This document shows positions 1-11,241 of a stretch of 22,430 nt of DNA, one piece after another. The stretch is from a virus. Each line of letters opens with the position of its first letter. Position 1 is the first letter of the stretch. The notes beneath the pieces were generated by a model. That model was not told where the DNA came from and made no database searches. It saw nothing but the letters and a program-made list of their open reading frames with translations. The position numbers were made by a program, and so were the translations under genes. The stretch is from UHGV virus genome UHGV-0073206. The stretch is one strand, 5' to 3'.

Positions 1-864
1 ATGAAGAACACAAGTAAGTTCCAGAATGTAGTGATTGTCACTATTGTCGGTTGGCTTGTGTTGTTTGTCTTTCTGCCCAACCTGATGATCATTGGCACCA
101 GCTTTTTGACCCGCGACGACGCCAGTTTCGTCAAAATGGTCTTTACGCTGGATAACTACACGCGTCTGCTCGATCCGCTCTATTTTGAAGTGCTATTGCA
201 CTCGCTGAATATGGCGCTGATCGCCACCCTCGCCTGCCTGGTGCTGGGCTACCCGTTTGCCTGGTTTCTGGCGAAGCTACCACACAAGGTGCGTCCGCTG
301 CTGCTGTTTCTGCTGATTGTTCCCTTCTGGACCAACTCACTGATTCGCATCTACGGGCTGAAAATTTTCCTCAGCACCAAAGGCTATCTCAACGAGTTTT
401 TGCTCTGGCTGGGCGTTATCGACACACCAATTCGTATCATGTTCACGCCCAGTGCGGTGATTATCGGTCTGGTTTACATTCTGCTACCGTTTATGGTGAT
501 GCCGCTGTACTCCAGTATCGAAAAACTGGATAAGCCGTTGCTTGAGGCGGCGCGCGATCTCGGTGCCAGCAAGTTACAGACTTTTATCCGTATCATTATT
601 CCACTGACGATGCCGGGAATTATTGCCGGATGTCTGCTGGTGATGCTGCCAGCGATGGGCCTGTTCTATGTATCCGACCTGATGGGCGGTGCGAAAAACC
701 TGCTGATCGGTAACGTCATCAAGGTCCAGTTCCTCAATATTCGTGACTGGCCGTTTGGTGCAGCCACCAGCATTACGCTGACTATCGTAATGGGCCTGAT
801 GTTGCTGGTTTACTGGCGCGCTTCTCGTCTGCTGAATAAGAAGGTGAGCGAAATAGATGATTAA
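1..864 (+). CDS. potB: Spermidine/putrescine ABC transporter permease PotB (host gene)
   Basis: 287-aa ORF beginning at window position 1 (MKNTSKFQNVVIVTIVGW...), multi-pass hydrophobic protein with ABC-permease EAA-type loop (LLEAARDLGASKLQTFIRIIIPL); recognised as E. coli PotB. No potC follows; sequence downstream is AT-rich non-coding then phage genes, so the last few codons may be insertion-derived. Confidence 0.9.
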   Translation: MKNTSKFQNVVIVTIVGWLVLFVFLPNLMIIGTSFLTRDDASFVKMVFTLDNYTRLLDPLYFEVLLHSLNMALIATLACLVLGYPFAWFLAKLPHKVRPLLLFLLIVPFWTNSLIRIYGLKIFLSTKGYLNEFLLWLGVIDTPIRIMFTPSAVIIGLVYILLPFMVMPLYSSIEKLDKPLLEAARDLGASKLQTFIRIIIPLTMPGIIAGCLLVMLPAMGLFYVSDLMGGAKNLLIGNVIKVQFLNIRDWPFGAATSITLTIVMGLMLLVYWRASRLLNKKVSEIDD

Positions 865-1263
865 TCCTTTATATTCAATGAAATAAGTTAGTTTTTAAAG
901 GGTTTTGTTGTTGAAAGAAACAGTATTGTATATTTCACCAAAATCAATCAGTTGCGTTCTAGTTTTGGAGAATGTTTTTTGAGGCTTTTTGTTAAAGCTT
1001 GTTATGCATTGCCTCAATTAATAACCTTTTTCCCAGCCCTCCCAACCGTTAAAAAGTCGGGAGGGCTTCAGGCACCAGTTGCAATTGATTTATTGGCCAA
1101 TACCAAACGCTCGGATTGAACCCAAATCCCCCAGGTTATTCAGTTCTTCCTTCATCTCCCGCTGACGTTGATAAATCTCGTGATTGCGATCGACCTGCGC
1201 CTGCGCCACCTGTCAGCGCACCTGATATCACTACAGACATAGTTTTTCTCGCGATAAATTAAA

Positions 1264-1794
1264 TCAGGAAGAGGCTTCCGGAGAGACGGGCCATTCAATG
1301 GCGTTATATGAGGTTTTATCAGTGATGGTGCTGAAATCCATCGCCTGCAGCGATTTCGCGTAAATGCGCCAGACTGTCAGCTTTTCTTTTTCTTCATCAC
1401 CGATGATTCCCAAAAGTAAATCCGTCTTCTTATCGGATATTTCCCGTTCGGCAATCGCAGTAAGACGTGCACGCTCCGACTCTGCCTGCTGCCTGTAGTC
1501 AACAGGGACCGGTAGTACTTCACCGTCTTTATAATACCAGCGCGCCTCTATACAAAAGCCATCCGGTAGTTCATCCACTTCCACAATGGTAAAACCAACG
1601 GGATAAAGACGGGATACATCTTCCGCCACGGAATAAATAACGCCGGTTTCAGGATGCGTGCACAGCTTGTATTTCTTCGTGAATTTATCCAGTGATTCAT
1701 AAAAATCCTGCCCGTCTTCACTACGGAAATACTGAATGCCGTCACCATAAGGCATGTCTTCAGGGTAGTAACGCGTAATGTTTGAGAGTTCCAT
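1264..1794 (-). CDS. Phage tail fiber assembly protein (Tfa family)
   Basis: Start at internal Met (MELSNITRYYPE...) preceded by strong SD AAGGAG; C-terminal region (...DLLLGIIGDEEKEKLTVWRIYAKSLQAMD...IEWP) resembles tail fiber assembly chaperones. The listed ORF 1264..1830 is an N-terminal over-extension. Confidence 0.65.
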   Translation of the reverse strand: MELSNITRYYPEDMPYGDGIQYFRSEDGQDFYESLDKFTKKYKLCTHPETGVIYSVAEDVSRLYPVGFTIVEVDELPDGFCIEARWYYKDGEVLPVPVDYRQQAESERARLTAIAEREISDKKTDLLLGIIGDEEKEKLTVWRIYAKSLQAMDFSTITDKTSYNAIEWPVSPEASS

Positions 1795-1808
1795 TATTTT
1801 CTCCTTAA

Positions 1809-2813
1809 TTAACCTGATACAGATCGCCATGCACCATTAATATAAATCTGAGCCTGTTTGTAATACACGCCACCGATATTGTCTGCAGAGTTACGGCCAG
1901 TATCCTGAACATTAATGCCTGACAAAACACAACCAGAAGGTGCTCGAAACGTCCAGCTGTGCTCGTTCTGGTCCTGAGTAAACGTGACTTCCGAAACAAG
2001 CAGTTCGGTATTGTCGAAACCACAGACCGGATCAAAGACAATCACCCGCTGGTTGGGTTGCCACAGCGTACCGTTACCCTGTCGCCAGCCCTGCACCACA
2101 TAGGTGGTTTCATCCGTCCGCGCCGCCCGTTGCCGGGCTTCAAAGTCAGCACGCGCAATACAGCCTGCCCCCGTAGCCTGCCCTGTCTGCCTGATATACA
2201 TCGGACGGTAACGGGCAATAAATGCGTCCTCTGTGCGGGCCCTCAGCGCGGTGGTGGTGGCCTCACCGAAATCATCGTCGTTTCCGGCACGCTGCCCCGC
2301 CACCTGGTAAACAGAAAACCGCTCCCGGATACTCTTCTCCGTATCGCAGGAAAGGATGTTTTCCCCGAGCACCAGCGCAGTATGCGCCCGCGTTGAGCCA
2401 ATACCGCCAATCACCAGCCTGCCGTGCGGGTCGTCGTAAGCCAGTGCCTGCTGCTGACCGAGTATTTTGTTGATTACCTCAATCACCGTTTCACCATGAT
2501 CGGGCTGGACGTCAGGAATAACACCCGACGGCGCACCGCTGTTCACCACCTCAATGCCGAAGGGCGCAGCAAGCGCCTGCGCAATCTGTACCAGCGATCG
2601 TCCGTTAAACTGTGTCGGTTCGGCTGCACAGTCAATCAGGTCAGCAGTCAGACTACGTCCGGCAATACCGGTGCTGACCGAACGGGCATCGTAACGAACG
2701 GGGGTCGCCTCCACCCAGCCGGTGATCACCAGTTCATCACCAATCAGCACCTCCACTTTTGAACCGTTTTTAATGCGCGGCTGAAGCGTGGTGATACCCC
2801 AGCTCGCGGACAT
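1809..2813 (-). CDS. Phage tail/baseplate protein (Mu gpP / late-control-D-like), probably a truncated or fused remnant
   Basis: 334 aa from Met with weak SD (GGGAAAG); soluble beta-rich composition typical of myophage baseplate proteins; lies between the tail tube gene and tfa where tape measure, baseplate and tail fiber genes would be expected. Family assignment is from recall and is weak. Confidence 0.4.
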   Translation of the reverse strand: MSASWGITTLQPRIKNGSKVEVLIGDELVITGWVEATPVRYDARSVSTGIAGRSLTADLIDCAAEPTQFNGRSLVQIAQALAAPFGIEVVNSGAPSGVIPDVQPDHGETVIEVINKILGQQQALAYDDPHGRLVIGGIGSTRAHTALVLGENILSCDTEKSIRERFSVYQVAGQRAGNDDDFGEATTTALRARTEDAFIARYRPMYIRQTGQATGAGCIARADFEARQRAARTDETTYVVQGWRQGNGTLWQPNQRVIVFDPVCGFDNTELLVSEVTFTQDQNEHSWTFRAPSGCVLSGINVQDTGRNSADNIGGVYYKQAQIYINGAWRSVSG

Positions 2814-2898
2814 CTTTCCCGGTGGGCTCATCAAACTCCAGTACGGAGAGTGTCTCGCCATGAGCGGTAATCGGTTTCTTTAACTCAAGCTCTTTCAT
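2770..2898 (-). pseudogene. Tail assembly chaperone fragment (42 codons: MKELELKKPITAHGETLSVLEFDEPTGKDVREL...)
   Basis: ATG overlaps the tube gene stop (TAATG) as in sheath-tube-chaperone modules; the frame terminates after 42 codons and overlaps the next ORF, consistent with a deletion removing the frameshift chaperone extension and the tape measure gene. Confidence 0.3.
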
Positions 2899-3254
2899 TA
2901 CTGGTAATCCCCTTCTTCACCGTGGAACTCAAGATCGACCGTGCCTTCTTCGGCATTATGGTTCGCTTCGCCGTGCAGCCAGGCAGACGACAGTACATAG
3001 ACCTGACCGTTCGCCAGCTCGGCAGTGATGGTCATCTCATCAGACGAGGTGATTTTGCTCACCGGAAAATTCTTCGGCACCTTGAAGGTCCCTTTGACAT
3101 AAGGCGCACGGTGAGTTTCCTTGCGGTCCACTGAACCGTCCAGGCCGATGATGTCATCATTGACCGTCCTGTTCATGGGCACCTCAATGCCGCCGGTCAG
3201 TGATAGCTGCTGACCGTCAATTTTGAAATAACAGGTTCCCCCGATACGGGCCAT
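2898..3254 (-). CDS. Phage tail tube protein (Mu gpM-like size)
   Basis: 118-aa ORF immediately downstream of the sheath fragment with start overlapping its stop; size and position match contractile-tail tube proteins. Confidence 0.5.
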   Translation of the reverse strand: MARIGGTCYFKIDGQQLSLTGGIEVPMNRTVNDDIIGLDGSVDRKETHRAPYVKGTFKVPKNFPVSKITSSDEMTITAELANGQVYVLSSAWLHGEANHNAEEGTVDLEFHGEEGDYQ

Positions 3255-4030
3255 TATGCAGACTCCTCTGAATACTGAAGACGGAACTGGTTAACCACGG
3301 CAAAGACACGCAACTGGTTAACATAGTCAGGCGGGAACAGCGTGTTCAGGCGGTTCGGATCGCTGGCATCACGCTCCACAACCAGGTACTGCTTGAACAG
3401 TTCGTAGTTTTCCACGATCCCCGCACGCTCGAGCTGACGGTAGGTTGCCAGCAGTTCCCCTTTGATCACCGCCGGGGTGACAATCGCCTGACCGGGACCA
3501 AAGCGGGTACCGTCACTGGCAAGCTTGTGACGCCCGTACTTACTGGTAATGACGGATTTCAGTTTGCGCAGTACATACGCGCTGGTATGCAGCGTCTCGC
3601 TGTCGAGGTAGCTGTTATCCGCAACCCCGTAAGCGTTTTTCCTGTACGTGGTGACATCACGCTGAATGCGCAGCACCCCGCTTTCGACATACGCCGTTGC
3701 CACGCCATGAGACAGCAGGGTCTGCTGCTCGGTCATTGTGAACCGTTTCCCCTTCGGCGCAGGCAGCATACCCACCAGCTCACCGGTCTGCGTGGGACGT
3801 GCCGGATCGTTGCGGATAAACACTGCCGCGCGGGCGGTACGGCTGGCTGCCAGCTCGTCGGCAGGCGTCTGGGTGTCTTTTTCGTACCCCGCCAGGGTAA
3901 TGTGCTGCTGGTTAAACTGGTCACCTGCGGTCACCAGTTCTGACAGCGTGCCGGTCTTTGCCGTATACACATGACCATACAGCTGACGCGCATAGCTCCA
4001 GCGACCGCTGGTATCGTTCATCTCGGTCAC
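3254..4030 (-). pseudogene. Tail sheath protein, C-terminal fragment
   Basis: 258-aa ORF directly upstream of the tube gene; sheath proteins are normally larger than 350 aa; the 5' end overlaps the out-of-frame tail of the terminase fragment, indicating a deletion junction near 4030-4090. Confidence 0.5.
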
Positions 4031-4595
4031 CGTCCTCCGGACGGCTCATGCTTTGAGCATGTACTTCAATACCAAATGCTTCACGCAATGGCTCCGTGCG
4101 TTGCGCCATCAGTCTGGCTGGACGAAAAACTTCCCACGCCTGTTTCTCTGTTGTGGCCCCGGAATACACTTCAGCGCCAAATTCATCATCGCAGGCAAAC
4201 ATATACAGACCAACGCCAGCAGACATTGCTGATTTCCCGTTTTTACGGGGTATTTCGTTGTAAGCCTCGCGAAATCGACGCAGACCGCTCTTTTTTCTCA
4301 CCCACCCAAACACAACACAGATACAGAACAACTGCCAGGGTTCAAGCGTAATGGGCATCCGCTTAAATGCCCACTCCCCTTTGGTGTGTGGCAAAAGCTG
4401 GATAAATTTCGCCACCCGCTCAGCTTTATCTTTATCAAATTTAAACGGATAGTTTTTTTTAACTGAATTTTCCAGGTCATCAAGGTGACGCTGGCAGGCT
4501 AGAACGACATAACGGCAAACCTGAATTTTTCCGCGAACCACGTCACGTGCATACTGATTTGCGGCATTAACGTTCACGTAATTTTTTCGTGTCAT
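3921..4595 (-). pseudogene. Terminase large subunit, N-terminal fragment (truncated)
   Basis: N-terminal ~180 aa ([20 protein letters not shown]...PITLEPWQ...[19 protein letters not shown]...) look like TerL and its ATG overlaps the terS stop; thereafter the frame carries low-quality sequence and ends at 3921. Full TerL would be more than 500 aa. Confidence 0.6.
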
Positions 4596-5062
4596 AGGTT
4601 TTTAAATGGATTATCGCTCCCCTGCTTCGGCGTGATAAGCCGCTGCCGACTGGCAGGATCGAGTCCTAATAAACTACCGAATGTCACCATTTGTCTGGCG
4701 GCCTCATTTGCCGCCGTGAGTGCCGGGTTTTTCTTTGGCCCCGCCTCACTCTCTACCGTAATCCCAACGCGCATAACCTCCTGCTGCGACTCATGCCAGT
4801 TGCGAAAAGCAGTGCAGAATGCAACGACGTTGTGCAAATCAGTAACATAAAGAACTCGCTGGGCACAGAGCTCACGAATAATGGTGTCCCACATATGACG
4901 AGCGGTTTCATCAAACCACTCGGGAGGCTCAGCATGGGTGATCGGCGTGAATTTTGGTTCAAACTTATTTAATGCCCGCTTGCCGGGATTGCCTGCCAGT
5001 TCCTTACGGGTAGTCGGCTTCGGCTTTCTCCCTCTTCCGGGCGCAACAGATTTTTCTGACAT
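4592..5062 (-). CDS. Phage terminase small subunit (P27 family-like)
   Basis: 156 aa, basic N-terminus ([21 protein letters not shown]), positioned immediately upstream of and overlapping TerL, downstream of an HNH endonuclease as in HK97-type packaging modules. Confidence 0.7.
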
Positions 5063-6300: not shown

Positions 6301-6684
6301 TTATCGCTTCAGCTGAAAGTGAGGTCCGTCTTTCAGCGTTTTCCAGTCCCCGCCCCATTCGATAGCGATCCCCAGCTCTGCGGCAGCCTGCTTAAATGCC
6401 TGTGCGATTTTCTCGTACAGAGGCCACTCCCATGACACCTGACTGCCAATGTAGGCCACAACATCCACCGCATCACCGGTCAGGTGGCGGCTGTTCATGG
6501 TCTGGCTTTTCCCTTCCGCAACCAGCTGTTTCTGGCGATACTTACTGCGCAGGCCTTCCGTAATACCGAAATCAACCTCCGTCAGCTCCAGCGCACGGCG
6601 AACTACAGCAACCAGCTGTGGTTTGACACCCTCCAGATTTTTTTCACTGCGACGGCTGAATCTGAATTTACCCGGCATATTCAC
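6301..6684 (-). CDS. Endolysin, peptidase M15 family (L-alanyl-D-glutamate peptidase-like)
   Basis: 127 aa; motifs SRHLTGDAVDV and WGGDW...H match zinc-binding residues of M15/VanY-type phage endolysins; ATG overlaps the stop of the upstream membrane protein (ATGA). Confidence 0.8.
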   Translation of the reverse strand: MNMPGKFRFSRRSEKNLEGVKPQLVAVVRRALELTEVDFGITEGLRSKYRQKQLVAEGKSQTMNSRHLTGDAVDVVAYIGSQVSWEWPLYEKIAQAFKQAAAELGIAIEWGGDWKTLKDGPHFQLKR

Positions 6685-6956
6685 CTCAACAATGGAAAGA
6701 TTTTTGTGACGTTCCCGCGTGCGCGTATCACCAGCACGCAGAACAGCAGATTAAAAAACACTTCCAACCAGCCCGTTGCTAACGGGCGACCACACAGATA
6801 GCTGAGGGGCGCAAAGGCATACAGCAGCATCAGCAGCCAGGCCAGCCATGACACCAGCGGTTTATGCCTGGAATCACGGCGACGATAAAAAAAGAGCGTC
6901 AGCACGATAACCGCGCATAACGCCACATTCAGCAATCCGGGAAGGTTACTTAACAT
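6681..6956 (-). CDS. Holin/antiholin-like membrane protein
   Basis: 91 aa from Met MLSNLPGLLNVALCAVIVLTLFF..., 2-3 predicted TM segments; ATG overlaps the upstream holin stop and its stop overlaps the endolysin start. Confidence 0.5.
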   Translation of the reverse strand: MLSNLPGLLNVALCAVIVLTLFFYRRRDSRHKPLVSWLAWLLMLLYAFAPLSYLCGRPLATGWLEVFFNLLFCVLVIRARGNVTKIFPLLR

Positions 6957-7338
6957 TGCCGCCTCCTCCACCCCGCAGGCGGGAGAACACACCGGACACC
7001 AGCGATGCAATATCCTGCTGGTGGATGAACGAGAGAATCTTCACCGACACCACCGAGACCAGCACCGCGCAAAGCGCATCTGCTGATGTAGCGTCATACC
7101 CTGTTTTTGATGCAATCCAGGCTGACAGCACACGCGCTCCCAGCACGCCGACAATAAACGACACCAGAAAATGTGCCACCACGCGCCAGACTGAAAGTGA
7201 CTGTGGCATTGTTGCCACAAATAACGCCCCGGCGAACGCGCCAAACACAATCCCGAAATCCATCCCGGTAAACAGCCCGAATACCGTCGCGCCACCCAGC
7301 GCCGCAGCCGTGCCGGAACCGGATAAGGGTTCAGACAT
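6946..7338 (-). CDS. Putative holin
   Basis: 130 aa, Gly/Ala-rich hydrophobic segments (FGLFTGMDFGIVFGAFAGALFVA), strong SD AGGAGGAAGT before ATG; first gene of the lysis cassette. Confidence 0.5.
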   Translation of the reverse strand: MSEPLSGSGTAAALGGATVFGLFTGMDFGIVFGAFAGALFVATMPQSLSVWRVVAHFLVSFIVGVLGARVLSAWIASKTGYDATSADALCAVLVSVVSVKILSFIHQQDIASLVSGVFSRLRGGGGGNVK

Positions 7339-7394
7339 ACTTCCTCCTGAAAATAAAAAAGGGCCACCAGCGACCCGTAAAAAAACACCCCGTC

Positions 7395-7416
7395 AAAGGC
7401 ATCCGCAGATGCCTTT
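7395..7416 (-). terminator. Hairpin (possible weak terminator or processing site) between the cargo cassette and the holin
   Basis: Perfect hairpin AAAGGCATC-CGCA-GATGCCTTT; the U-tract on the minus-strand transcript is displaced by 9 nt, so terminator function is uncertain. Confidence 0.3.
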
Positions 7417-7425
7417 TGTGTGATG

Positions 7426-7578
7426 TTATTCAGATTTACGCAGTAAAGGCCGGAGCACGACCAGCGCCATCGCCACCAGCACACCATCTGCCAGCACCGA
7501 CATCAGTCGTCCGGTGAAATCAACCACCACTACCAGAAACAACAGGATGACAGCCAGCACAAGGCGCGCACTTTTCAC
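7426..7578 (-). CDS. Small two-TM membrane protein (50 aa), GTG start overlapping the upstream stop
   Basis: V/MKSARLVLAVILLFLVVVVDFTGRLMSVLADGVLVAMALVVLRPLLRKSE; GTG overlaps TGA of the TerB-domain gene (GTGA) with GGAG 9 nt upstream; below the ORF-track cutoff. Confidence 0.4.
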   Translation of the reverse strand: MKSARLVLAVILLFLVVVVDFTGRLMSVLADGVLVAMALVVLRPLLRKSE

Positions 7579-8177
7579 AGGTACTGCTCCAGCGGCAACT
7601 GCAGCGCCTGCGCAATTTTCTTCAGTTGCGCTTCTTCTTCCTGAGCGATACCGTCCTGGTCAGCGATATCCAGACACAGGCACAGCACATTAACTGCATC
7701 ATCAGTACCGGCAACATCAGCCAGCTGACGAAGAGCTTCGGCATTGGCAGAACGCGGCGACGCTTCATAACGGGCGCGGATATTTGCACTCATTTGTGCA
7801 ATCTCACCGGAGAACGGCGCAAAGGCAGGAAGTGCTGCAATGGTTTTTTCCAGTACCGCGATTTCTTTCGCGTCACAGGTGCCGTCAGCGTATGCAATGG
7901 AGTACGCGCCCCAGACGGTCGCCTCCACTGCGTCACGGTTCTCCATCTTCTTCACTTCGGTAATGGCCTTGCGGGTTTTCTTTTTGAAAATACTAAACAT
8001 CGTGACTTTTCCTTTTAGTGGGTGAGCCTGCATAACAAGCTGAGTCAGTATTAACTGGCAGCGTTCGCGTGAAAGGTAAGTATTCTGCGCAATTTCCCCG
8101 ACGGTCGCCGGTTCGGTGACGCTTAATTCATTAAACACCACTCTGGCGGTTTCGGTCATATCCTGCTGTTTTAGCAT
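7575..8177 (-). CDS. HTH + TerB-domain protein (N-terminal winged-helix-like segment, C-terminal TerB-like domain)
   Basis: Best start at Met MLKQQDM (8177) with A/G-rich SD; N-terminal ~55 aa contain an HTH-like segment (TVGEIAQNTYLSRERCQLILTQL); the remainder (MFSIFKKK...YADGTCDAKEIAVLEKTI...DIADQDGIAQEEEAQLKKIAQALQL) matches the two DG..E repeat pattern of tellurite-resistance TerB domains. The ORF-track start at 8300 would include the terminator and is less likely. Confidence 0.6.
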   Translation of the reverse strand: MLKQQDMTETARVVFNELSVTEPATVGEIAQNTYLSRERCQLILTQLVMQAHPLKGKVTMFSIFKKKTRKAITEVKKMENRDAVEATVWGAYSIAYADGTCDAKEIAVLEKTIAALPAFAPFSGEIAQMSANIRARYEASPRSANAEALRQLADVAGTDDAVNVLCLCLDIADQDGIAQEEEAQLKKIAQALQLPLEQYL

Positions 8178-8300
8178 GCCTTTTTCCCTTTTCTGGTTAA
8201 CGTGACATACCAATACCTCTTGTCGAAAAAGCCAGCAAGCTGAAAGACCAGTATTCACAACTACCAGCGCGTTTAATGTTCTGTGCCGTTTTTCAGGCAT

Positions 8301-8324
8301 AAAAAAACCCGCATAAAGCGGGTT
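8301..8324 (-). terminator. Rho-independent terminator downstream of the Q-like gene (tR'-like)
   Basis: On the minus-strand transcript: stem ACCCGC-UUUAU-GCGGGU followed by U7; located ~165 nt downstream of the Q-like gene stop, the expected position for a late-operon terminator read through by Q. Confidence 0.6.
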
Positions 8325-8489
8325 CTTTCAGGTGTCCATGTCTGCTATTCGCCTCGCGGTACAGCTTTGCGAAGCGTAGCTGGATTGAAACAGTTTATGG
8401 CTAAAAATACAAGCTTTTTTTCTAAAACTGCACAAACCTTACTACCAGCCAAAAATCCTCTTCGTGCAACAACAAACGCCCTCCAGATT

Positions 8490-9044
8490 CTAAGCGTCAG
8501 TAAAAGAAAATGCATCTCGCATCAGTGGATACAGAATAAACTCAGCTATTCTCAGCCACATATCTATACGATTGCGGCATGTTGCATAGCACCACTCAGG
8601 GTGAACCTCATTCAACAATTCAGCCATTTTGCGTTTACTCATCCCCCGCCCTTCGTACCTTTGCCGCAGGATATCAATCAATCCAGGATAACGTGCAAGC
8701 GCTTTACTTATCACCCCATCAATGCGTAACGCCTCTGCATCAGTACAGTGAGACAACCAGCTCTTCTGTCTGCCAGCGATCATCTCTCGCAAGAATGCTT
8801 CCAGCTCTGGTTTATCAATCCCTGACTCCCTGATTCTACGCAGGGCTTCATTGATTGCGGTTTTTGTCAGTTTTTTGGATGCCAGCAACTGATTGAACAT
8901 ATTTCCTGGTTTGCCACCACCTATATACGACCAACGCCCCCACATCCGTAATTTCCCCTGGATCCAGACGACTTCCAGCGTTTTTAGACGTAAATGCTCG
9001 CCGCTTTTGCCTGTAATTTCCGGATATATCATATTTACGATCAC
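8490..9044 (-). CDS. Late-gene antiterminator Q-like protein (QuuD-type family)
   Basis: 184 aa; N-terminal LRMWGRWS motif resembles the LERWGAW motif recalled for small Q-family antiterminators; position between rusA and the lysis cassette is canonical for Q. Start (GTG 9044 overlapping rusA stop, or ATG 9032) is ambiguous. Confidence 0.5.
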   Translation of the reverse strand: MIVNMIYPEITGKSGEHLRLKTLEVVWIQGKLRMWGRWSYIGGGKPGNMFNQLLASKKLTKTAINEALRRIRESGIDKPELEAFLREMIAGRQKSWLSHCTDAEALRIDGVISKALARYPGLIDILRQRYEGRGMSKRKMAELLNEVHPEWCYATCRNRIDMWLRIAEFILYPLMRDAFSFTDA

Positions 9045-9406: not shown

Positions 9407-10390
9407 TCATGCTTTCCACTTCAGGACACCCGAATTTCTCGCGTGCATTAAAAAACGAATCAGCAACAACAGCTGGCTGCCGTGTTTTTCTTCAAAATCT
9501 TTTACCCCGGCGTGTAGTTCGCTATGGCATTTACGGCACAGCGGAATAACAAACAAATCATCAGCCTTTGTTCCCATCCCTCCCAGTCCATGACCAATGA
9601 TGTGATGCGGATCATCTGCCTGATTGCCACACGTCATGCATTTCTGCGTTTTTACCCAGCGCGTGTATACAGGCATCTCTTCCCGTTGTGGTTTCTGGCG
9701 CTGGAGATACTGAGCCGGTGACTCCGGATCAACGGCAATGCTGACCACCGTCTTTTCCTGTGGCGGGTTTTGCTGGTGGGCGTGAGGCAGTAGCGCAATA
9801 CTTTTTGTGCGCTGCTTCAGCATGCTGGTGGCGGTCTGCTCTCCCGGCACGATGTCGCTCTCGCGGTATACTGAGCGAATTTTTTCCGCGCGTAATCCCA
9901 GCGAACGACGTAACACCATCTCCGGTAGTGCGTCCGCTACGTTATTTATGGTTGCCCACCAGGATAATTCAGCCAGCGATAATTCCCGCTCCTGCGTGCC
10001 ATTCATTGCGTGGCGGATGACATCAATCATCCATGCTGACAGGTTTTGGTGAGCAAGTTGCTCGAGTGATTCGGAAGTCTGGTTACGCAGCTGGTTGTCG
10101 CAGTGCCAGCACAACACCATCGCGCCGGTACCGTAACGATGTATGACGGTTTCACTGTGATGGTAGTCACCATGAGGCCACTGGCAGGATTTAACGTGGC
10201 GTAACAGCCAGTCAGACAATGCACCAGCACCACCAGCAGCACGAATCACCCGCTCATCGCTGAAAAATGGCAGTAATGATTTATCCTCCGCCAGCGGCTG
10301 GCGAACAGCAGGAACGACTCCGGACGGCAGACCGCGCATGCTTTTCGGTTCCGGCTCCACCAGAACTCGAGGGTTATGAAATACCTGCAT
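9407..10390 (-). CDS. DUF968-family phage protein (YdfU-like) with C-terminal HNH-like zinc-finger motif
   Basis: Start chosen at Met MQVFHNPRVLVEPEP; C-terminus has CMTCGNQADDPHHIIGHGLGGMGTKADD...CRKCH; recalled as the YdfU/DUF968 family common upstream of rusA or Q in lambdoid prophages. The listed ORF to 10534 is an upstream over-extension. Confidence 0.7.
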   Translation of the reverse strand: MQVFHNPRVLVEPEPKSMRGLPSGVVPAVRQPLAEDKSLLPFFSDERVIRAAGGAGALSDWLLRHVKSCQWPHGDYHHSETVIHRYGTGAMVLCWHCDNQLRNQTSESLEQLAHQNLSAWMIDVIRHAMNGTQERELSLAELSWWATINNVADALPEMVLRRSLGLRAEKIRSVYRESDIVPGEQTATSMLKQRTKSIALLPHAHQQNPPQEKTVVSIAVDPESPAQYLQRQKPQREEMPVYTRWVKTQKCMTCGNQADDPHHIIGHGLGGMGTKADDLFVIPLCRKCHSELHAGVKDFEEKHGSQLLLLIRFLMHARNSGVLKWKA

Positions 10391-10463
10391 GGATTCACGG
10401 CCCGGTTTTAGCACCACCAGCCCAAGTTCCGGTACCGGAACAGGTCGAAGTAATACCCGCACG

Positions 10464-10742
10464 TTACCTCCAGATGCGTTGCTGGAATGTGCGGGACGGA
10501 CGCGGTGGGCGTTCGGAATAAGGGAGCCTGACATAGATTATCCAGTGACGATAATCGAGGCTGAGGGCTTTCTTAATCTCGTATCCGTGTCTGCGGTAGC
10601 GCTGAATCAGCCATTCAGCCTGTTCTTCGGTGCAGGGATCGTGCTGATACCAGTCAGATTTGAATGCATGAGAACGCCGCCCGTGCCTGCTGGCAGGGGC
10701 GGCAGAGTTATCCGAATTGTAAAATTTGGTATCGTGCGCCAT
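10464..10742 (-). CDS. Hypothetical phage protein (92 aa)
   Basis: Start at internal Met MAHDTKFYNSDN...; basic Arg/His-rich protein, no recognised family; downstream of the hok terminator. Confidence 0.4.
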   Translation of the reverse strand: MAHDTKFYNSDNSAAPASRHGRRSHAFKSDWYQHDPCTEEQAEWLIQRYRRHGYEIKKALSLDYRHWIIYVRLPYSERPPRPSRTFQQRIWR

Positions 10743-10909: not shown

Positions 10910-11065
10910 TTACTCCTCAGGTTCGTAAGCTGTGAAGACAGCGACCTCCGTCTGGCCGGTTCGGATTCGTACCTCGCAGAGGTCTTTCCTCGTTACCAGT
11001 GCCGTCACTATGACGGTTAAACAGATGACGATCAGGGCGATTAACATCGCCTTTTGCTGCTTCAT
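10910..11065 (-). CDS. hok: Hok/Gef-family type I toxin (51 aa)
   Basis: MKQQKAMLIALIVICLTVIVTALVTRKDLCEVRIRTGQTEVAVFTAYEPEE: single TM helix followed by the conserved C...R..GQ/T.EV.A...YE motif of Hok/Gef toxins. Confidence 0.85.
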   Translation of the reverse strand: MKQQKAMLIALIVICLTVIVTALVTRKDLCEVRIRTGQTEVAVFTAYEPEE

Positions 11066-11122
11066 AGCCTGCTTCTCCTTGCCTTTCGGCACGTAAGAGG
11101 CTAACCTACATTTGTGAGACAT
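10910..11122 (-). CDS. mok: Mok-like N-terminally extended frame overlapping hok (translational-coupling ORF)
   Basis: 70-aa in-frame extension (MSHKCRLASYVPKGKEKQA + Hok); the size relationship matches recalled mok/hok pairs. Not independently verifiable here. Confidence 0.35.
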   Translation of the reverse strand: MSHKCRLASYVPKGKEKQAMKQQKAMLIALIVICLTVIVTALVTRKDLCEVRIRTGQTEVAVFTAYEPEE

Positions 11123-11241
11123 AGATTGGGCCTCAGATTAATGTTAAGCGTCTTGCAGGACGCGTAATGTTAACTGGGGCTTTTCTCTATCTGCCTTTTG
11201 GTGTTCATGCCTGAGACAGATAGCCTCAAGCACCCGCAGTT

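Follow-up and report, generated by a model that had tools for sequence, protein, structure and literature searches.

The genes tciA and tciB have carried these names since the annotation of the phage P1 genome, in which 'tci' derives from the link of the ter cluster to phage inhibition and colicin resistance (GenBank notes). A tciA-tciB pair was found in UHGV-0073206, a stretch of 22,430 nt from a virus (the window, meaning below the full stretch), where all genes of the cassette lie on the minus strand between a Q-like late antiterminator and the holin. Its TciA and TciB share 85% and 48% identity with those of P1, and the gene order, the tight junction and the families PHROG 632 and PHROG 1470 are the same. 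P1 has a third small gene, tciC, which was absent in the window. As none of the other annotated non-P1 loci that were examined has it either, tciC does not define the module. The surroundings also differ, as the P1 genes are located between ban and its C1-controlled promoters/operators, and not behind Q.

TerB of the ter cluster (2JXU, PF05099) contains the same domain with both ADG...E motifs. The window TerB is unlike it in being phage-borne and stand-alone with a 50-aa partner, and no match to TerZ, TerA, TerC, TerD or TerE was obtained among the larger window open reading frames (ORFs) scanned against PHROGs and Pfam. The lambda genes rexA and rexB likewise form a two-gene prophage cassette of a soluble and a membrane protein. 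RexB is a channel with four transmembrane (TM) segments and rexAB is expressed together with cI in the lysogen, unlike tciAB, which lies in lytic transcription units; no sequence relation between the two cassettes was found via Pfam, PHROG or PADLOC.

Among bacterial systems, the anti-jumbo-phage system Dionysus is composed of the TM protein DinA, the TerB-like DinB and the pore-forming toxin DinC; the paper describing it treats TerB as an amphitropic component of membrane surveillance (10.1101/2025.09.30.679545). Dionysus, and also Shango (SngA) and Bunzi (BnzA), share with tciAB a cytoplasmic TerB-like protein genetically coupled to one or more membrane proteins. Unlike Dionysus, tciAB has a hairpin of 50 aa instead of a 4-TM pore former, lacks DinA, helicase and ATPase, and is phage-encoded, including by virulent phages.

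A preliminary description, made from the letters of the window alone, had taken the pair as undescribed and its first gene as a helix-turn-helix (HTH) segment joined to TerB. The pair is already known, being tciA/tciB of P1 with its own PHROG (632/1470) and Pfam families and with RefSeq annotation. The reading preferred here, with a probability of about 0.85, is that the locus is this P1-named pair in the slot between Q and holin, and that the HTH-TerB chimera came from an illegitimate deletion of 1,694 bp, with a guard role of the pair as a tentative proposal.

TciA and the origin of the 200-aa reading frame

The ORF of 200 aa that had been reported at 7575-8177 was present on the minus strand, and its TerB domain was supported by profile searches. 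Pfam TerB scored 32.3 bits against a curated cut-off of 24.4 (E=1.3e-7), and a profile of eight diverged phage homologues matched Klebsiella pneumoniae TerB (PDB 2JXU) with E=7.8e-16 over 124/143 positions. This eight-sequence profile was needed, since the single-sequence PDB search returned spurious PNPase matches only and no TerB. The paired DG..E repeats seen earlier by eye turned out to be invariant family columns, both ADG...E motifs being represented by D39, G40, E46, G117 and E122 in the eight homologues. The PHROGs split the ORF in two: residues 60-200 span the whole of phrog_632 'tellurite resistance' (1-143/143, E=5.2e-63), and residues 1-50 match the unrelated phrog_331 (positions 35-84 of 111). 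NCBIfam gave no match for TciA, TciB or Q.

Inside this ORF an intact tciA is located (7575-8000, minus strand), which starts from ATG at 8000 with its own Shine-Dalgarno sequence (SD, AAAAGGAAAAG), begins MFSIFKKK and encodes a TerB-family protein of 141 aa with a probable TerB fold. It differs in one residue from WP_000466939.1 (141 aa, TerB family), its 85% identity with P1 TciA extends over 141 aa, and the identical allele is annotated by NCBI as a TerB family protein of 141 aa. The AlphaFold2 (AF2) model of the chimera is all-helical, with a predicted local distance difference test score (pLDDT) of 83-93 over residues 81-200. Its best PDB matches were chains of PG1108 (2H5N; probability 0.97-1.0, E=0.03-0.24, TMt 0.52-0.57), which we take to be a member of the TerB-like superfamily; 2JXU, determined by nuclear magnetic resonance, was not among the 50 structure matches listed.

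The origin of the first 59 residues was revealed by comparison with the intact prophage of ATCC 43886 (NZ_CP024256). Window 9336-8031 corresponds to positions 1-1306 of the ATCC 43886 locus with 99.3% identity and window 8031-6201 to positions 3001-4831 with 99.8%, and between these collinear matches 1,694 bp are missing from the window at a scar (8030-8032). The two elements have an identical TciB and the same Q, holins, endolysin, HNH protein and small terminase; unlike the window, the ATCC 43886 prophage keeps L23, the methyltransferase, two tRNAs, the terminator, the full leader and a complete set of head and tail genes. With these 1,694 bp went the last 16 codons of the small ORF L23, the genes for a DNA methyltransferase, tRNA-Ile and tRNA-Arg, a terminator-like hairpin and the greater part of the tciA leader. 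What is left on one side of the scar is the 5' fragment of the L23-type ORF (8031-8177, minus strand, 49 of 65 codons), which is weakly winged-helix-like, and on the other side the last 30 nt of the leader, with the SD (8001-8030).

The chimera is composed of L23 residues 1-49, which are identical to the first 49 of P27p23 and of the ATCC 43886 homologue, then QAHPLKGKVT (residues 50-59) translated from the former leader, and then the complete TciA of 141 aa. What had been read as an HTH joined to TerB is the stump of a separate 65-aa gene followed by a former 5' untranslated region (UTR). As to the HTH expected on residues 1-55, the full 65-aa L23-type protein gave only sub-threshold matches to winged helix-turn-helix families (for example TrmB with E=0.0026, and MarR_2); its RefSeq label is 'TrmB family'. 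The tciA ATG of the intact relative is preceded, at a distance of 19 codons, by an in-frame stop; the deletion removed this stop in the window, and gene callers see a single ORF of 200 aa because the join happens to be in frame.

The leader of about 150 nt is present in the ATCC 43886 prophage (at 2857-3031 of its locus), in a further relative and in JLK-2012, and the window retains about 30 nt of it; L23 is complete (65 aa) in phiP27, the ATCC 43886 prophage and many Shiga toxin (Stx) phages, and the 65-aa ORF of ATCC 43886 is identical to L23 of phiP27. The window is the derived state, because each of its two flanks is a shortened version of an element found whole in several other phages. 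The reverse order, an insertion in ATCC 43886, was rejected on the same ground. Microhomology at the 8031 junction is 1 nt.

A genuine, selected HTH-TerB fusion, in which a DNA-binding or sensor head on TerB would control a TciB effector, could be argued from the ORF itself, which runs uninterrupted in one frame from ATG 8177 as far as the stop of tciA at 7575, with a purine-rich stretch before the ATG, from the weak winged-helix likeness of full L23, and from the occurrence of the exact protein on six contigs in a collection of 15 billion proteins. However, the winged-helix-like ORF is 16 residues short, the linker comes from UTR that is now read through, one join in three is in frame by chance, and the prophage in which it arose is visibly decaying. 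The six contigs have one common neighbourhood and may be one strain. In addition, the 34-nt junction had 0 exact matches in three large collections of genome, viral and metagenome contigs, and by megablast none of 5,426 complete E. coli genomes reached a coverage of 80% over window 7300-8500, whose left and right portions matched separately. Nearly all homologue clusters are also of the length of TciA itself, about 110 of the best 120 (of 746) having 136-145 aa; the roughly 10 longer ones among these 120 were upstream-start calls or frameshift read-throughs. A selected fusion is largely refuted by this evidence and is very improbable.

The 8031 junction might instead be an artefact of metagenome assembly, the real genome having the full L23-methyltransferase-tRNA segment. 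The best match is indeed a metagenome scaffold, and six contigs with one neighbourhood could be re-assemblies of the same data; the one inspected, an ENA metagenome scaffold, was 100% identical to the window over 12.6 kb. On the other hand, a microhomology of 1 nt gives no repeat to collapse, the contigs come from several sources (JGI/IMG, Logan, ENA and GEM), the identical allele of TciA (S3) is held in NCBI records, and the same element has a second clean deletion, so an artefact is hardly credible.

As judged from these alignments, the HTH-TerB protein is most probably a chimera private to one lineage of a decaying prophage and not an architecture. The normal 141-aa TciA would still be expected from its own SD and ATG, and a 200-aa by-product may be made from the L23 start. 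Apparent new domain fusions in prophages need to be checked against close relatives first, since, in decaying prophages, deletions that keep the frame leave scars resembling new architectures.

Distribution and coupling of tciA and tciB

The second gene, tciB (7426-7578, minus strand), starts with a GTG inside the CTGTGA that ends tciA, forming a GTGA overlap. It had been described as a two-TM protein of 50 aa whose start overlaps the TerB stop, and this was borne out: the ORF 7578-7426 encodes a DUF3927/TciB membrane protein of 50 aa (PF13064, E=1.4e-14; phrog_1470 'TciB-like', E=3.3e-23), with two hydrophobic segments in the hydropathy profile. It is identical to WP_000833653.1, and RefSeq gives the same coordinates in relatives. 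The motif VDF[TS]..R..S.L.DG.LV...WP.LK was conserved in the alignment of TciB proteins. The tight junction takes several forms, with the GTGA overlap in the window, a further relative and JLK-2012, TGATG in P1 and TAAATG in Salmonella phage FSL SP-076.

The nucleotide sequence of the pair occurs in 346 of the 5,426 complete E. coli genomes (about 6%), at least 80% covered in 159, both in chromosomal prophages and in P1-like plasmids. TciA homologues were found in 90 phage records, including Erwinia jumbo phages, Pseudomonas Nickievirus and a Vibrio phage, and also in phages described as virulent (Salmonella FSL SP-076/058 and Pseudomonas PMBT3). A TciB-like ORF directly follows TerB in P1, JLK-2012, the N4-like Salmonella phage FSL SP-076, Erwinia phage Caitlin, Pseudomonas phage phiK7B1 and a 186-like Klebsiella prophage. 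The preliminary description had proposed that the small membrane protein is coupled to TerB, and the genome scan seeded with TciB agreed with it, TciA being immediately upstream in 9 of 11 loci; the other two were deletion remnants. The ratio of non-synonymous to synonymous substitution rates (dN/dS) was 0.05-0.08 for tciA and 0.2-0.4 for tciB, which points to purifying selection on both genes.

The place of the pair in the lambdoid genome was defined by comparison with phiP27 (NC_003356), which is collinear with the ATCC 43886 prophage (87%) over the 3' end of the methyltransferase gene, tRNA-Ile and tRNA-Arg, and the terminator that follows these tRNAs. The collinearity ends about 48 nt after the tRNA (2905 in the ATCC 43886 locus, 4882 in the phiP27 locus), where phiP27 goes on to stxA2e and the E. 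coli prophage to the tciA leader and tciAB. Thus the pair of the intact relative and stx2e of phiP27 have a common starting boundary, and the claim of an stx-equivalent cargo slot was sound. Besides these elements and the cargo start boundary, phiP27 shares the L23 ORF (93% at the nucleotide level); it differs in its own cargo, stxA2e/stxB2e, and in a Q of different type, and in the window the left flank of the slot is deleted. Other lambdoid relatives carry different genes between Q and tciAB.

The pair is thus widespread (E. coli, P1-like plasmids, 186-like prophages, N4-like, jumbo and Pseudomonas phages), under purifying selection, and placed in the Shiga toxin slot, with exclusion, anti-defence and membrane homeostasis as candidate roles.

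Several further features were observed around the pair. Genes for tciAB or terB lie directly beside tRNA genes in P1, JLK-2012, Erwinia Caitlin, Pseudomonas phiK7B1 and the ATCC 43886 prophage, and in P1 and the ATCC 43886 prophage the pair is flanked by them; this adjacency may reflect shared accessory regions. The tciA leader of about 150 nt is roughly 85-90% identical (by eye) between prophages with no more than 41% identity in TciA, which could mark a mosaic boundary or a regulatory element not recognised so far. Pseudomonas phage AF has at about 1930-2150 a small ORF that lacks annotation; it encodes a single hydrophobic segment, is coupled as tciB is, through a GTG start overlapping the terB stop (GTGA), and is not DUF3927-like. 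Vibrio phage vB_VpaP-MS02 (381-1929) has no TciB, and a gene for a membrane protein of the TerC/Alx family directly precedes its terB; this TerC looks like another kind of membrane partner for TerB in phages.

Candidate roles of the pair

In every context seen, tciAB belongs to lytic-phase transcription units, which are late ones behind Q in lambdoids and apparently early operons in P1, 186-like and AF-like phages. Such placement, together with carriage by virulent phages, argues against host-protective abortive infection (Abi) and against a dedicated lysis accessory. For P1, tciA, tciB and tciC were non-essential by CRISPR interference (CRISPRi) (PMC10695390).

A tentative model, favoured by the membrane-surveillance view of TerB in Dionysus and by the pairing of TerB with TerC in a Vibrio phage, is that TciA and TciB form a membrane complex during lytic growth, which would guard the inner membrane through exclusion of phages or colicins or through counter-defence. 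TciA would be a soluble, acidic TerB-fold protein, made stoichiometrically with TciB through translational coupling; proteins of the TerB type are described as amphitropic and associated with membranes. TciB would be a hairpin formed by two hydrophobic helices, its ends basic, and TciA could dock on it on the cytoplasmic side of the inner membrane. In the window prophage both genes would ride on the Q-antiterminated late transcript just before the holin. The complex might then act as guard or monitor of the energised inner membrane during infection, so that lysis keeps the schedule of the holin, the putative insults being pore-forming colicins, superinfecting phages and membrane-targeting effectors. 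It would be dispensable for plaque formation in the laboratory.

In its wider form the proposal is doubtful: tciAB might be a two-part membrane guard, a TerB sensor tethered by a hairpin, with which temperate and virulent phages of gammaproteobacteria exclude superinfecting phages or colicins, or blunt membrane-targeting host defences, during lytic growth. If true, it would be the phage-side counterpart of TerB-based bacterial systems such as Dionysus and Shango, and the chimera of the window an accidental variant of it.

Several points weigh against the account given here. The AF2 model is uninformative over residues 1-73, most of that stretch having pLDDT <50 without alignment depth. The contact between TciA and TciB is a putative one. 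The identities of the two proteins are discordant, with 85% for TciA vs 48% for TciB between the window and P1, and 41% vs 60% between the window and JLK-2012, and this is not the pattern expected from tight allele-specific co-evolution; the discordant divergence implies recombination between tciA and tciB and interchangeable partners. Rare single-chain TerB-DUF3927 proteins (P0080 and P0090) were considered as Rosetta-stone evidence for the pair and rejected as probable frameshifts or sequencing errors. In the searchable literature no functional study of TciA or TciB was found, but only genome descriptions and one CRISPRi essentiality table.

Another possible, though doubtful, role is that of an anti-phage module working by Abi or superinfection exclusion, in which TerB would sense a perturbation of the membrane and TciB would execute exclusion or depolarisation, as in the comparison with Dionysus, Shango, Bunzi and Rex. 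TerB domains do occur in validated defence systems, Dionysus pairing a TerB-like protein with membrane and pore-forming partners, and the plasmid ter cluster has historically been tied to phage inhibition and colicin resistance. The pair also sits in a moron/cargo slot and is non-essential for P1, and exclusion would benefit virulent phages too. However, when the defence-system check proposed in the preliminary description was run with PADLOC v2, 0 families were obtained at E<=1 for the chimera, TciA and TciB (2023 library, which predates Dionysus), and no Shango or Dionysus partner genes were present. Strictly virulent phages carry the pair, in which host-protective Abi makes no sense; its lytic-phase units, which are late ones in lambdoids and early ones in P1 and 186-like phages, come with no detectable lysogenic promoter, and a hairpin of 50 aa is an unproven effector.

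With the membrane-guard model, a function in lysis timing or as an antiholin-like accessory of the holin-endolysin cassette has also to be compared. The pair includes a membrane protein and, in lambdoid prophages, shares the late transcript of the holin and directly precedes it. It is not beside lysis genes in P1, the 186-like Klebsiella prophage, the N4-like Salmonella phages, the Erwinia jumbo phages or the Pseudomonas phages, JLK-2012 has other genes between the pair and what follows, and in the window a terminator-like site and hairpins stand between the pair and the holin, so this function is unlikely.

Tellurite resistance conferred on the lysogen (lysogenic conversion) is suggested by the names in Pfam, PHROG and RefSeq, and the homology to TerB of the ter operon is real. 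This explanation is highly improbable, as the other Ter proteins were missing among the larger window ORFs scanned, expression appears tied to lytic growth, and a lone phage terB is not expected by phage genome authors to give tellurite resistance (PMC8421299; PMC3728262).

The Q-to-holin region and the surrounding prophage

The Q-like late antiterminator (8490-9044, minus strand) belongs to the DUF1133 family (PF06576, E=6.7e-101), with Phage_antitermQ at 27.8 bits against a cut-off of 26 and phrog_753 'anti-termination protein Q-like' at E=2.6e-78. On its 3' side is a tR'-like intrinsic terminator (8301-8324, minus strand) with a stem of 13 bp (-18.2 kcal/mol, z=-5.6) followed by U7. It was missed by a simple terminator scanner, as the U-run can pair into the stem, and was detected by folding. 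A stable hairpin follows tciB on its 3' side (7395-7416, minus strand; -17.6 kcal/mol, z=-4.3), with no U-run directly after it. Both hairpins had been noticed beforehand and hold on folding. A third, terminator-like hairpin with U6 (7361-7376, minus strand) stands directly before the holin SD and is also present in the ATCC 43886 prophage. The 87 nt from tciB to the holin SD in the window contain hairpins only. In the intact relative, terminator-like hairpins flank tciAB on both sides; in the window they lie downstream of it.

A crude consensus scan detected no sigma-70 promoter for the cassette in the window or in the intact relative, and neither the cassette nor the relative's conserved tciA leader contained an RNA known to Rfam. 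The lysis cassette (6301-7338, minus strand) is composed of a holin (6946-7338; Phage_holin_8, phrog_198), a second holin (6681-7010; Phage_holin_3_7, phrog_217) and an M15 endolysin (6301-6684; Peptidase_M15_4, phrog_465).

The prophage is a defective phiP27-like element between potC and potB of E. coli, and it ends next to potB (window 1-987). In the second deletion, with a junction near 4024-4031 (window 3990-4060) and GGTG microhomology, about 7.3 kb are missing relative to ATCC 43886. It joins the N-terminal part of the large terminase (ORF 3921-4595) to the C-terminal half of the tail sheath (ORF 3254-4030), and the portal, protease, capsid, connectors and sheath N-terminus were lost. 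The tail region (window 990-2860) has been cut to about 1.8 kb with most tail genes gone, and it had no match to the tail module of ATCC 43886. It contains the ORF 1809-2861, made of the middle part of a baseplate hub and the C-terminus of a tail fibre, and a tail-fibre assembly gene (1264-1830) follows. Virions cannot be made by this element.

Independent decay of the Q-to-holin slot was also seen elsewhere. In E. albertii NBRC 107761 (about 2400-2600 of the locus), a tRNA-like region abuts a 5'-truncated tciB and tciA is gone, and another related locus (about 2490-2640) has a lone tciB without tciA. The cargo region between Q and the holin appears deletion-prone.

Two other features lie upstream of Q in the window. 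A protein of 375 aa with DUF968/HNH (phrog_96, window 9407-10534), common in this prophage type, precedes RusA and Q. In addition, a hok/sok type I toxin-antitoxin system is located at 10910-11235, where Rfam sok scored 120 bits at 11060-11235 (minus strand) with a HOK_GEF ORF adjacent to it.

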